Source: a virus
Virus genome (UHGV): UHGV-1558343
Length of the DNA: 30,962 bases
Reading direction: 5' to 3' (one strand)
Part shown: positions 23,355 to 30,962 of the stretch, piece by piece
Layout: every line of letters begins with the position of its first letter
Position numbering within the stretch: position 1 is the stretch's first letter
Made by a program: the position numbers and the translations under genes
The notes under the pieces: generated by a model
The model's input: only the letters and a program-made list of their open reading frames with translations
What the model was told of the DNA's origin: nothing
The model's database searches: none

Positions 23355-23632
23355 CTTAACAGCCCCTTAACACCCCCTTTGCAAAATTTTAAAATATCCT
23401 TAACAATCTCTTAACAGTTCTCACATCTTCTTAACAACTCTTCAAAGGTCTTAACAGATTCTTAACAGAACTAACAAGGCTGTAACAGTTTCTTAACAGT
23501 TGATACATAGTCTTTACAGATGCTTAACAGATGACTAACAAGAGCTAACAAGTTAATTTTTAAGAGTTATTTTGTTAAGATAATTAACAAGTTTCTAACA
23601 AGTGTTTAATCTTTTTAACAAGCTATTAACAT
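23355..23632. repeat. periodic array of at least 17 degenerate TCTTAACAG / CTAACAAG units spaced 10-11 bp
   Basis: runs such as tcttaacagat tcttaacagaa ctaacaaggc tgtaacagtt tcttaacagt; spacing equals one helical turn. Confidence 0.8.
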
Positions 23633-23882
23633 GGTCACTACTTCTTTCTTATCGTTCCCTTTCCTTTCTTAATTGGTATTGTTATGAGGATGCTTCATCC
23701 GAATCATCTACCAATCCCTAGTGATTCTCTAAATAGCCCTCTTAAAAGCTCTCTATAGCTCTTTATAGTCTCTTTTAAGCCTCTTCCTAGTATCTACCCC
23801 CAACTGTACAGATAGCTCTTTATAGGGCTTTACAGGAGCTTTTAAGGCTATGTCAAAGGTTCTTACAAGGCTTTTACGTGGT

Positions 23883-23990
23883 CTTAACAGAGGTTTAACA
23901 AGGGGCTAACAAGTTGCTAACAAGTGCCTTAAAAGCATAACTGTGTAGGGTTTGTTAAGAAATTGTTAAGAAAATGTTAAGGGGGCTAGA
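23883..23990. repeat. second TTAACA(A/G) cluster with inverted-orientation copies
   Basis: cttaacagaggtttaacaaggggctaacaagttgctaacaag followed by gttaagaaattgttaagaaaatgttaag (reverse orientation). Confidence 0.7.
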
Positions 23991-24620: not shown

Positions 24621-24726
24621 TCCAGTTTAGGAAGTAGTTTAAGGGCTTTATTTAGTGGGGAAGGTCATTCCCTCCCCGTTGATTAGTAATTTACTTGTTT
24701 TGATAGCTGATTGCAAGTAATTTTTT
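24621..24726 (-). promoter_or_regulatory. type A promoter/stem-loop/RBS cassette
   Basis: minus strand: TTGCAA -35 (24721-24726), 17 bp, TAAATT -10 (24698-24703), GC-rich hairpin GGGGAGGGAATGACCTTCCCC, GGAG SD, ATG. Confidence 0.7.
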
Positions 24727-25260: not shown

Positions 25261-25380
25261 TTTCTTTAAATGCAGTTTTTCTGCTTTTTTCATGGTTTTT
25301 ACTAGTAACATCATGACAAATGAGAAAATCATCTCTGAGAATACAGGGTTGTTAAAAACTGTCTCAATAGTATGCGTCAT
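25234..25380 (-). CDS. hypothetical small hydrophobic protein (48 aa)
   Basis: ATG at 25378-25380 after a type A cassette; translates MTHTIETVFNNPVFSEMIFSFVMMLLVKTMKK...; hand-translated, below ORF-track cutoff. Confidence 0.4.
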   Translation of the reverse strand: MTHTIETVFNNPVFSEMIFSFVMMLLVKTMKKAEKLHLKKKSIVNRFK

Positions 25381-25475
25381 CTTTTTGAATCTCCTAGTTT
25401 AAGGACTTTATTTAGTGGGAAGGTCATCACCTCCCCGTTGATTAGTAATTTACAGACTTTTATCAGGTTTGTCTA
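25381..25475 (-). promoter_or_regulatory. type A promoter/stem-loop/RBS cassette
   Basis: minus strand: TAGACA -35 (25470-25475), 17 bp, TAAATT -10 (25447-25452), hairpin GGGGAGGTGATGACCTTCCC, GGAG SD. Confidence 0.7.
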
Positions 25476-26398: not shown

Positions 26399-26602
26399 TT
26401 ATTTGTTATTTTTGACAACTTTTAAAACTGCACGGTAACCTAAGCAATAGGAATCACCGAAGAGCGACCGGCCCATGAAGGAGTCTTCTGTAATATCTTT
26501 CGCCGTGACGGTTTTTTCTACGCCGTGAAAGAGAACTATATCACCAACTTTAATATCTTTGATGTGAGTTGTTTCAATGTGTAAGCCGTTGATAATAGCC
26601 AT
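26399..26602 (-). CDS. hypothetical small protein
   Basis: 67 aa, ATG directly after a type A cassette. Confidence 0.55.
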   Translation of the reverse strand: MAIINGLHIETTHIKDIKVGDIVLFHGVEKTVTAKDITEDSFMGRSLFGDSYCLGYRAVLKVVKNNK

Positions 26603-26694
26603 TTTTAGAATCTCCAGTTTAGGACTTTATTTAGTGGGGAGGTTATCGCCTCCCCGTTGATGTGTAATTTAACCTATCTAAAAATCAGTGTCAA
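26603..26694 (-). promoter_or_regulatory. type A promoter/stem-loop/RBS cassette
   Basis: minus strand: TTGACA -35 (26689-26694), 17 bp, TAAATT -10 (26666-26671), hairpin GGGGAGGCGATAACCTCCCC, GGAG SD. Confidence 0.75.
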
Positions 26695-27467: not shown

Positions 27468-27559
27468 TTTTGAATCTCCAGTTTAGGACTTTATTTAGTG
27501 GGGAAGGTCATTCCCTCCCCGTTGATGTGTAATTTAGCCTATCTAAAAATCAGTGTCAA
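27468..27559 (-). promoter_or_regulatory. type A promoter/stem-loop/RBS cassette
   Basis: minus strand: TTGACA -35 (27554-27559, overlapping upstream stop codon), 17 bp, TAAATT -10, hairpin GGGGAGGGAATGACCTTCCCC, GGAG SD. Confidence 0.75.
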
Positions 27560-29593: not shown

Positions 29594-29682
29594 TTTTGAA
29601 TCTCCTAGTTTAAGGTTAATGTGGTAAAGCTCTTTATCTGGGGCTTAAGATATCAACTTTTAAGCCCCTTGTAAAGTACTTT
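29594..29682 (-). promoter_or_regulatory. type B cassette
   Basis: GGGGCTTAA - loop - TTAAGCCCC hairpin, near-identical to 26314-26398. Confidence 0.65.
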
Positions 29683-29889
29683 TTATTTATCGTAATAGTA
29701 AATTGCTGTCTGTTTTATAAGTCTCTTTGTATTCTTTGTAAGGTAACAATTCGAGTTGATTGCCGTTTCTACATAGTTGCAATAGTCAGCTTCTGATATT
29801 CTACGCCATGCGCCGCAGACTTGCATGTAAAAACGTTTTGCCTTTGTGTTGACGTTAGTTGTAACCATCAATTCGCGACTGTACATCAT
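29683..29889 (-). CDS. hypothetical small protein
   Basis: 68 aa, double ATG start, GGAG SD. Confidence 0.55.
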   Translation of the reverse strand: MMYSRELMVTTNVNTKAKRFYMQVCGAWRRISEADYCNYVETAINSNCYLTKNTKRLIKQTAIYYYDK

Positions 29890-29967
29890 TTTGGATTCTC
29901 CAGTTTAGGAAGTGGGCTTGCTTGCCCGTCTGATGCAAATATTAGATAACCATACTCAAAGAGTCAA
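29890..29967 (-). promoter_or_regulatory. promoter/hairpin/RBS cassette variant with near-consensus promoter
   Basis: minus strand: TTGACT (29962-29967) - 17 bp - TAATAT (29939-29944), then GGGCAAGCAAGCCC hairpin, CCTAAACTGGAGAATCCAAA ATG. Confidence 0.7.
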
Positions 29968-30139
29968 TAGGAATTTTAAAAATATTTTTGCAAAAAACTG
30001 TAATGAAACGGGCGCACGCGATTACCACAAAACAGAACTACAATCAAGAATTATTTTTCAATCCGCTACAAATTTTTCTGTTGACTTTTATTTCCAGATG
30101 TGGTAGCCTTGTGAGAAATGGCGACATTCCCACCTGCAC

Positions 30140-30330
30140 CCACCTACCTGCACAATTCTAAAATGATTTTTCTTGCCCGACCTGATTTTTCTCTGCACGT
30201 TTTGAAAATGAAAAAGCTCTTTGGAGATTACCTGCACAGTTTGAAAATGAATTTTCTCTTTGGAGTTCAAAATTCTCTCTACAGATTTCTCTACAGAACT
30301 CTACCTGCACAATTCTAAAATGAAAAAGCC
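30140..30330. repeat. cluster of interspersed direct repeats in a 430-bp non-coding gap
   Basis: TACCTGCACA three times, CAATTCTAAAATGA twice, TTGAAAATGAA twice, CTCTTTGGAG twice, TTCTCTACAGA twice. Confidence 0.7.
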
Positions 30331-30395
30331 CTCCTTACCTGAAAATTTACCAGATAAGAAAGGCTTAGTCTATTGTGAATATTCTACAGAGTTTC

Positions 30396-30962
30396 TTAGT
30401 TCTTTGCGTCTAAGAAGGTAACTTCCGGTGAAGAGAAAATTTCCTCAACATCCTCATCATTTCTTGCATAGATATATGTATCTGCATCACTGCCAAATGT
30501 TACTGCAATTCTGTGATTGCTCTTCGACAGGTGGGTAACTAGAGCGTTACTTAGAGACATCTTTTCAACCGGAGGGTTACTTTGATGTATCTTACCTTTT
30601 CTTCGTCTGAAGAGGGTAACTGTATCGTCTGTGAACACTACTACGCCTGCAAAGTATTCTGGCTCACAGTAGTTCTTCCAATCTGAGTGTAACTCGTTGT
30701 ACATCTCTGTCTCGTAGACATATAGGTAAACATCTACGCTCTTCATCACCTGATTAATGATAACTGTGACGGCTTGAGGGTCAAGTCCACCGATACCTGC
30801 ACCAATCATAGGTAAACCAACTTTCTTCAACTGATTAACTTCACAGTATCTGTTAAGTTGTTTCAAAGATGACTCTAAAGCACTGTATCGGGCATCTTTA
30901 CCAGTCTTAAGCTGAGTGTAAAGGTTAGCTATACGGCCTTGTTCTAAACGTGCTACAGAGAA
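30396..30962 (-). CDS. macro-domain (ADP-ribose binding/processing) protein, C-terminal part; N-terminus lies beyond window end
   Basis: frame is open from 30962 with no stop; motif KKVGLPMIGAGIGGLDP resembles the macro-domain C-terminal Gly-rich loop; ORF track lists only 30396..30866 from a TTG. Confidence 0.55.
   Translation of the reverse strand, partial: FSVARLEQGRIANLYTQLKTGKDARYSALESSLKQLNRYCEVNQLKKVGLPMIGAGIGGLDPQAVTVIINQVMKSVDVYLYVYETEMYNELHSDWKNYCEPEYFAGVVVFTDDTVTLFRRRKGKIHQSNPPVEKMSLSNALVTHLSKSNHRIAVTFGSDADTYIYARNDEDVEEIFSSPEVTFLDAKN

Follow-up and report, generated by a model that had tools for sequence, protein, structure and literature searches.

Type III antitoxins and the locus under study

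An antitoxin gene of a toxin-antitoxin (TA) system of type III consists of a promoter, tandem direct repeats and a Rho-independent terminator, with the toxin cutting at an A-rich site in each unit (PMC5086642, PMC3401426). Type III toxins as a group cut A-rich sites, and ToxN cuts AA/AU (PMC5086642). The repeats of toxIN loci are 31–62 nt long and present in 1.9–5.6 copies (PMC3401426 Table 2), those of cptIN and tenpIN measure 40–48 nt and 39–57 nt (PMC3401426; PMC12283969), and TenpI repeats diverge by up to 35% (PMC12283969). The pseudo-ToxI of the Pectobacterium phage PhiTE blocks abortive infection once it has expanded to 4.5–5.5 copies (PMC3475682). Here we describe an array of four imperfect direct repeats in a gene-free gap of the virus genome UHGV-1558343, of which a stretch of 30,962 nt is called the window below. 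The array is conserved throughout a phage subfamily, and we tentatively read it as an independently transcribed, repeat-built non-coding RNA, a putative multi-site decoy resembling the type III antitoxins.

Positions 29600–30962 of the window matched 249 phage records at 90–96% identity, nearly all of them Felix-O1-like (Felixounavirus) and infecting Escherichia, Salmonella, Shigella and Citrobacter; by this similarity the window comes from a Felixounavirus. Felix O1 and its relatives are classic typing phages that are now in biocontrol and therapy. To our knowledge, almost nothing has been established about their gene regulation and counter-defence, and the literature, as far as it could be searched, holds no account of the locus and nothing on the transcription, replication origin or type III TA systems of Felix-O1-like phages.

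A four-copy direct repeat in a gene-free gap

The original prediction was of a non-coding gap of about 430 bp in which several short motifs recur. The gap is indeed non-coding, but at 506 bp (29890–30395) it is larger than supposed, reaching from the start codon of a 68-amino-acid (aa) open reading frame (ORF; 29889) to the stop codon of a macro-domain gene (30396), and its left third (29936–30109) is made up of promoters, not repeats. The recurring words are all present where they had been noted, but as fragments of one direct repeat of about 40 nt that occurs in four copies. TACCTGCACA lies at 30145, 30229 and 30302 and CAATTCTAAAATGA at 30152 and 30309, while TTGAAAATGAA and CTCTTTGGAG each have two copies within 30203–30265 and (T)TCTCTACAGA has two within 30271–30295. 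A repeat finder recovered a single family (D1–D3) of about 29–34 nt, with four in-register copies at 30145, 30190, 30229 and 30302. The units start at 30143, 30188, 30227 and 30300, giving a start-to-start spacing of 45, 39 and 73 nt, and are 71–86% identical to one another. They are co-oriented on the plus strand, opposite to the genes flanking the gap, which are all on the minus strand. Common to all units, and to all genera considered below, is the core ACCTGCAC-N7-AAATGA-W5, that is, TGCAC-N7-AAATGA followed by five A/T. The array is laid out as follows, the scores being those of a position weight matrix derived from the units:

30110–30142, plus strand: variable leader, including an extra partial copy CCCACCTGCAC at 30129–30139 (repeat family D3)
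30143–30187, plus strand: repeat unit 1, 45 nt, core TGCAC-N7-AAATGA at 30149–30166, 33.3 bits
30188–30226, plus strand: repeat unit 2, 39 nt, core at 30194–30211, 36.8 bits
30227–30299, plus strand: repeat unit 3, 73 nt, core at 30233–30250, 37.7 bits
30300–30325, plus strand: repeat unit 4, core at 30306–30323, 38.0 bits

Unit 3 has a longer linker with the TCTCTACAGA duplication (30271–30295), into which most of the variable sites fall, and the 3' part of unit 4 continues as the 5' arm of a hairpin.

The repeats are far beyond chance. The degenerate 19-mer CTGCACRDTTBKAAAATGA has 4 matches in the window, all within the gap, against 0.03 expected from shuffled sequences. The unit matrix, which scores 33–38 bits at the four sites, reaches at most 15.9 bits elsewhere in the genome of the relative Pr103Blw (88,421 bp), within the range of shuffled genomes. 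The core is absent from the rest of the window and from the rest of the complete Pr103Blw genome, and the genome-wide motif search that had been proposed for dispersed copies found none elsewhere in these 88 kb. Because the motif is unique to the locus in the whole genome, the array is not a dispersed operator. A regulator binding array confined to the locus, one half of the earlier suggestion, is possible but less likely than the other half, a small RNA gene.

Conservation across the Ounavirinae

The gap was found in 289 phage records, with at least 80% of its length covered in 239. We aligned 23 distinct loci of Felixounavirus, Suspvirus and Mooglevirus and read the equivalent region of Kolesnikvirus (Erwinia phages) separately. 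One layout is common to the four genera: the macro-domain gene, a hairpin, three to four co-oriented units, a variable leader, an invariant TTGAC -35 element, an A+T-rich block and a divergent minus-strand promoter. Among 47 complete distinct loci, strict cores number four in 38 and three in 9, and the spacings fall into lineage-specific classes (45/39/73, 45/41/75, 39/37/37 and 45/75).

Between the window and Mooglevirus or Suspvirus, nucleotide identity is 74–88% in the array and 82–86% in the promoter block, against 66–70% for the DNA of the macro-domain and 68-aa genes (about 55% for their proteins) and about 45%, essentially none, in the leader. The array is as such more conserved across genera than the genes that flank it, and variable sites cluster in the leader and the inter-core linkers and avoid the cores. 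Absence of the repeats from related phages, which had been named as a refuting condition, is clearly not what is found: few bases of the region are as well conserved. Because the array outconserves the genes while the leader varies, the constraint lies on the unit sequence and not on a protein or the leader. The repeats are old, have no further copies in the genome and are selected as nucleotide sequence, and the array predates the split of the four genera.

Within Felixounavirus the leader itself comes in two unrelated alleles, the type found in the window and a G-rich type, implying that leader alleles have been exchanged by recombination. The G-rich allele GGGGAGAGGGGGAGTAAGAGGGGGAGAGGGG (loci L015, L030, L020, L022 and L058, at the place of window positions 30090–30142) has four G-runs separated by loops of 3–7 nt, on the non-template strand a canonical motif prone to forming a G-quadruplex or R-loop.

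Conservation of this depth bears on whether the repeats are evolutionary debris, the outcome of duplicated terminator halves and the adjoining downstream region, or of duplicated promoter cassettes, retained as the region is young. Unit 4 does enter the terminator arm, the CTTTGGAG of units 2 and 3 is like the other arm of the Mooglevirus terminator, and the region is rich in modular promoter-terminator cassettes (PMC3185647). However, an array that is older than the four-genus split, that is more conserved than the adjacent proteins and whose variable sites avoid the cores makes debris a distinctly improbable explanation.

Coding potential of the gap

Most records leave the gap without annotation, and the others place small 'hypothetical protein' calls in it on either strand; in all, about 290 deposited genomes either lack an annotation of the locus or have small hypothetical proteins wrongly called in it. 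Coding sequences (CDSs) inside the gap are found in MT833282 (Shy_0013, 0013a), NC_041977 (gp014), MF158043 (gp125), OP902295, MN850587 (mistaenkt_18), MK759884 and PP278848 (Omen_094, 095).

The best case for a small protein would be a 66-aa plus-strand ORF (30118–30318), possibly leaderless; the minus-strand ORFs of 50 and 60 aa in some GenBank records are the other candidates. The ATG of the 66-aa ORF lies about 1–2 nt past the predicted transcription start site, its frame is intact in each of the 19 loci examined from Felixounavirus and Suspvirus, and the CDSs annotated in several records could be taken in its support. However, its 33 variable sites are distributed flatly over codon positions 1/2/3 (10/11/12), and 8 of the 33 codon variants are synonymous (0.24), compared with 22% expected at random. 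The frame is broken in Mooglevirus by indels of 2, 4 and 2 nt and a TAG, the unit spacings of 37 and 41, seen in Mooglevirus and the Erwinia phages, are not divisible by three, the G-rich leader allele has no start codon, and there is no Shine-Dalgarno sequence. The minus-strand ORFs are also made of repeats and change along with them. Protein-coding ORFs on either strand were rejected on the codon-position statistics and broken frames, in agreement with the earlier opinion that the ORFs here probably do not code, and a small protein is very unlikely to be the product of the locus. From the same comparisons, the annotated small CDSs are probably spurious calls built from repeats, with no conservation at the protein level.

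Promoter-like elements and a hairpin framing the array

The array is set between promoter-like sequences and a hairpin, which were located by promoter and terminator scans and by reading the sequence:

29939–29967, minus strand: P1(-), promoter of the 68-aa early gene, TTGACT, 17-nt spacer, TAATAT (promoter scan)
30019–30047, minus strand: possible second minus-strand promoter, TTGATT-17-TGgTAATCG, back-to-back with P(+) (read by eye)
30048–30080, no strand assigned: A+T-rich block between the divergent promoters
30081–30109, plus strand: P(+), candidate sigma-70-type promoter into the repeats, -35 TTGACT at 30081–30086, 17-nt spacer, extended -10 TGgTAGCCT at 30101–30109
30326–30366, no strand assigned: hairpin of 17 pairs, then a T-run on the minus strand (terminator scan)

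The GTCAA of P1(-) and its -10 hexamer are conserved across genera in the alignment, and the equivalent in phage Mordin is TTGACT-17-TAGTAT. The possible second minus-strand promoter has a weak -10 and was not in the scan output; its block TCAAGAATTATTTTT is invariant in three genera. Between the divergent promoters, the A+T-rich block is nearly invariant in Felixounavirus, Suspvirus and Mooglevirus, with 82–86% identity across genera, and could be an UP-element for both. Of P(+), the -35 sequence TTGACTTTT is invariant in 23/23 aligned loci. At the orthologous site of Erwinia phage Hena2 the scan reported TTGACG-18-TATACT (10/12 positions), together with a divergent partner on the minus strand, TTGACT-17-TATATT (10/12 positions).

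The hairpin is the Rho-independent terminator of the macro-domain gene on the minus strand and is annotated as a terminator in AYO145A. It is likely to be also the 3' end or a stabiliser of a plus-strand RNA. It stands directly after the last unit, its plus-strand arm AAAAAGCCCTCCTTACCTG, the tail of unit 4, is invariant, and the other arm has been replaced at least twice between genera with pairing kept (covariation).

Two further observations concern this hairpin. A variant lineage, represented by IMGVR_UViG_3300045988_024527 (L058, 93.8 kb) and including L008, L128, L166 and L176, has three units at a spacing of 45/75 and another linker, and its hairpin, AAGGCCGCCTTACC...GGTTAGGCAGCCTT, is a third version that again pairs with the conserved arm. 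Also, at 30330–30337 the invariant plus-strand arm contains CCTCCTTA, which we take to be identical to the 3' end of 16S rRNA; on the minus strand this gives a perfect Shine-Dalgarno sequence, TAAGGAGG, and no start codon stands far enough or near enough to make use of it. CCTCCTTA is present in Felixounavirus, Suspvirus and Mooglevirus and not in the Erwinia phages.

The same arrangement could be taken for a transcriptional insulator or antisense unit, in which P(+) would oppose minus-strand read-through from the macro operon into the cassette genes and the repeats themselves would do nothing. P(+) and the macro-domain gene are convergent, the terminator lies between them and two minus-strand promoters restart transcription just downstream. 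This leaves the invariance of the cores in four genera, set against a replaceable leader, without explanation, and a terminator alone would do; we consider the insulator improbable.

A putative plus-strand decoy RNA

A small RNA gene is favoured over the other half of the earlier suggestion, since a co-oriented candidate promoter is kept in four genera and a hairpin stands directly after the array. In the model that we tentatively prefer, host RNA polymerase would start at P(+), near 30116, and the transcript would carry a short, replaceable leader followed by four co-oriented, imperfect units of about 40 nt, and would stop or be trimmed at the hairpin (30326–30366). The product would be about 250 nt long, G-poor and largely unstructured, each unit displaying the same invariant, single-stranded UGCAC-N7-AAAUGA with five A/U behind it, and the RNA would serve as a multi-site protein-binding decoy. 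Early in infection this decoy would most likely bind a host endoribonuclease that is specific for A-rich sites and belongs to an abortive-infection system, and might be cut by it, in the manner of the expanded pseudo-ToxI repeats of phage PhiTE. We infer the transcription, its strand, the function at the RNA level and the identity of the partner protein; an anti-abortive-infection role is proposed because the architecture matches that of a type III antitoxin array without a toxin.

Folding of the plus-strand RNA was no more structured than that of shuffled sequences (z = +0.69; -0.44 for the Erwinia-phage plus strand), which fits single-stranded display, while the minus strand has z = -2.5, due to the terminator hairpin. 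Three features are suggestive of function at the RNA level: the promoter and hairpin frame the units in one orientation in four genera with the units co-oriented with it; the last unit doubles as a hairpin arm; and a drift of 2 bp in spacing would rotate DNA-bound proteins by about 70 degrees and be harmless for sites on RNA. Rfam covariance models gave no hit that reached a gathering score, either for the window or for the loci of Mooglevirus, Suspvirus and the Erwinia phages, a result uninformative as to type III antitoxins since Rfam also misses genuine ToxI arrays. CsrA-type GGA, RegB GGAG, MazF ACA and in-unit minus-strand promoters are each found in some units or genera, and none is conserved throughout.

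The strongest competing interpretation, which we hold to be possible but doubtful, is a DNA iteron array, whose units would bind a phage or host protein in a nucleoprotein complex, for example at an origin activated from P(+) with unwinding at the A/T-rich AAAATGAWWWWW. The direct repeats are in one orientation, unique in the genome and beside an A+T-rich block and a promoter, as is the genome-unique repeat cluster of iteron origins such as lambda ori, P1 oriR and T4 oriE. The G-run leader GGGGAGAGGGGGAGTAAGAGGGGGAGAGGGG of many relatives would, on the non-template strand, favour an R-loop or G-quadruplex, and conservation without RNA structure is equally expected of a DNA site. However, spacings of 37–45 bp and 73–75 bp are longer and more irregular than the phasing of iteron origins, and phased cooperative binding to DNA is disfavoured because the spacing shifts by 2 bp from one genus to another. 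None of the genes nearby is recognisable as an initiator, the neighbouring proteins having no Pfam assignment except Macro, and the cumulative GC skew has no turning point here, following gene orientation instead with minima at about 8 kb and 50 kb of Pr103Blw. The window's own allele, moreover, is without the G-rich leader. If the locus were a replication origin, it would fill a basic gap for the subfamily.

Comparison of the array with known repeat RNAs

With P(+) taken as a promoter and the hairpin as the end of the plus-strand RNA, the order of parts in the phage locus would be that of ToxI, CptI and TenpI and of AntiQ of AbiQ: a constitutive sigma-70 promoter, tandem repeats of about 35–50 nt in 2–5.6 copies and a hairpin terminator. 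Repeat length and copy number (four units; three to four in the 47 complete loci) lie within the ranges published for type III antitoxins, and the array is likewise non-coding with one A-rich, AAAU-type site in each unit. AAAATGA or GAAATGA is invariant in every unit of the four genera, and its AAAU would be an A-rich candidate cleavage site. The divergence among the phage units lies within that of the imperfect repeats of TenpI alone, and the genuine loci L063, L068 and L091–L096 have the same architecture as the phage array. Differences are the 73–75 nt of one unit, the lack of a plus-strand U-tract after the hairpin, and the gene that comes next past the hairpin, which is the convergent macro-domain gene and not a toxin. 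A hidden Markov model of ToxN gave no hit (best E-value 0.43) in six-frame translations that covered the window, the loci of Pr103Blw, Hena2 and Mordin, and the whole genome of a relative. Because no ToxN homologue was found in the phage, the array is regarded as an orphan.

Several findings weigh against placing the array with the type III antitoxins. The -10 of P(+) in the window fits at only 3/6 positions and in the G-rich leader allele reads TAAGAG, and the scan reported P(+) in neither; nor is there a T-run (U-tract) on the plus strand of the hairpin. At 71–86% identity the units are unlike the near-identical repeats of ToxI and CptI. With a template for the H-type pseudoknot of ToxI (two stems of 3–4 bp with ToxI loop lengths), which recovered enterobacterial ToxI with scores of 18–23 and a fraction of shuffles as good of 0.00–0.12, the phage units scored at or below their shuffles and three had no solution. 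Enterobacterial ToxI repeats, taken from six plasmids of E. coli, Salmonella and Enterobacter, bear no sequence relation to the array, and a blastn search of the array against 72,556 plasmids (PLSDB) and 5,426 E. coli genomes found only one solitary unit, in a prophage. Copy number is steady at 3–4, with no expansion of the kind found in PhiTE escape mutants.

Apart from Ounavirinae contigs and tandem repeats that were coding or had 21-nt units, scans of viral genomes, 185,579 bacterial genomes and metagenomes with the phage-derived pattern returned one toxIN lineage, from gut Lachnospiraceae. This lineage (CAJGCP010000022, L063, an Acetatifactor metagenome-assembled genome (MAG); JAEEQX010000022, L068, a Lachnospiraceae MAG; also L103, L122, L136, L139 and L165) has full toxIN loci with a promoter, two 37-nt repeats, a terminator and a 159-aa ToxN/AbiQ (PF13958, E = 1e-47 to 1e-50). 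Its ToxI units did not fit the enterobacterial pseudoknot template, with the cleavage phase assumed. With the other 91 pattern hits as the null, these units showed no likeness to the phage units beyond the 11 forced bases and ranked 59–84 of 98. The match is compatible with chance and therefore was not counted as evidence of kinship. On several counts the locus thus differs from ToxI proper; its build is that of an orphan antitoxin or decoy array, and it may also act as one.

The pseudo-ToxI of PhiTE is a close parallel, being an intergenic, non-coding, antitoxin-like array in a virulent myovirus that has been proposed to act as an RNA mimic against abortive infection. It differs in that the PhiTE repeat is homologous to a host ToxI, whereas the phage array has no counterpart in the hosts searched, and in that wild-type PhiTE has 1.5 copies that expand under selection, whereas here 3–4 diverged copies are fixed throughout the subfamily. 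Sponge RNAs of the CsrB/RsmZ type also present several copies of a short motif on one transcript with a terminator hairpin. The motif here is not a GGA in a loop, and GGAG is present in Felixounavirus units but not in those of Erwinia phages.

If the array is a decoy RNA that counters RNase-based abortive infection, no such RNA was previously found fixed in nature and widely conserved, the PhiTE case having arisen under laboratory selection, and deletion or transplantation of about 220 bp would offer a simple handle on phage host range.

A solitary unit in an E. coli prophage

The single copy found outside the Ounavirinae, TACCTGCACAATCCTAAAATG, lies in a lambdoid prophage of nine E. coli genomes, in E. 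coli H3 (NZ_CP010167.1) at about 2825838–2825886 (L059 3009–3057). It is identical at 20–21/21 bases to unit 4 of several Felixounaviruses and has the Q antiterminator gene, by its 3' end, on one side and on the other a convergent moron of 427-aa and 49-aa proteins. Searches of Pfam, PADLOC, NCBIfam and PDB found no match for either protein. As in the phage, the copy is directly followed by an A-run and a terminator hairpin, which is bidirectional and differs in sequence. The BLAST E-value of the match is 2 against 28 Gb; because this database is highly redundant, we judge the match to be probably real. The arrangement suggests that a 'unit plus hairpin' is a portable module.

A bolder version of the decoy model would make the array a new class of RNA decoy, and we put it forward as speculation that is more likely wrong than right. 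The locus would be an anti-defence gene fixed throughout the Ounavirinae, with an early, abundant, unstructured transcript bearing 3–4 copies of UGCAC-N7-AAAUGA. This transcript would titrate a host endoribonuclease or an immune effector that binds RNA, or be processed by it. In neither sequence nor fold would it be related to ToxI, CptI and TenpI, and the E. coli prophage copy beside its terminator would be a second, independent use of the recognition element.

Neighbouring genes, genome end and cassettes

The gap is flanked by the following genes:

30396–30962, minus strand: macro-domain gene (3' part), which converges on the array, often annotated as 'phosphatase' (ORF list)
29683–29889, minus strand: 68-aa early ORF, downstream of P1(-)

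The full-length orthologue of the macro-domain gene matches Pfam Macro (PF01661, E = 1e-7). The 68-aa ORF is missing in some relatives (bumzen, AYO145A), in which the gap adjoins a 126-aa gene. Past the macro-domain gene and the gap comes a series of small genes of no assigned function, every one of which has a promoter-terminator cassette to itself.

The direct terminal repeats of felixounaviruses measure about 581 bp, as defined with PhageTerm in Pr103Blw (PMC8303462), and the gap was considered as a physical genome end, either such a repeat or a terminase recognition region. The repeats are close to the gap in size, and the Andreotti record (MN850610, 83.4 kb) starts inside the array. The terminal repeat of Pr103Blw, annotated at both ends of its record, nevertheless maps to window positions 23400–23986, about 6.4 kb away, and this position refutes the proposal, to which we attach a negligible chance. 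Positions 1–289 of Andreotti correspond to about 30108–30395 of the window, with a 22-bp 'repeat_region' at the start, and this start is most likely an assembly break at the repeats and not a terminus. By homology with Pr103Blw, 23400–23986 is the physical genome end; it is non-coding, packed with short repeats of the CTTGTTAA / CTGTTAAGA type, and the genes on either side converge on it.

Cassettes between the small early genes were noted at 29600–29690, with similar ones at about 24636–24695, 25380–25453, 26599–26671 and 27468–27536. Each has a terminator-like stem-loop, GGGGCTTAA...TTAAGCCCC, within a promoter-like TTTACA-17-TATCTT, followed by a GGAG ribosome site. They correspond to the 57-bp direct repeats of the Felix O1 genome paper (PMC3185647) and account for BLAST matches that come in several pieces.

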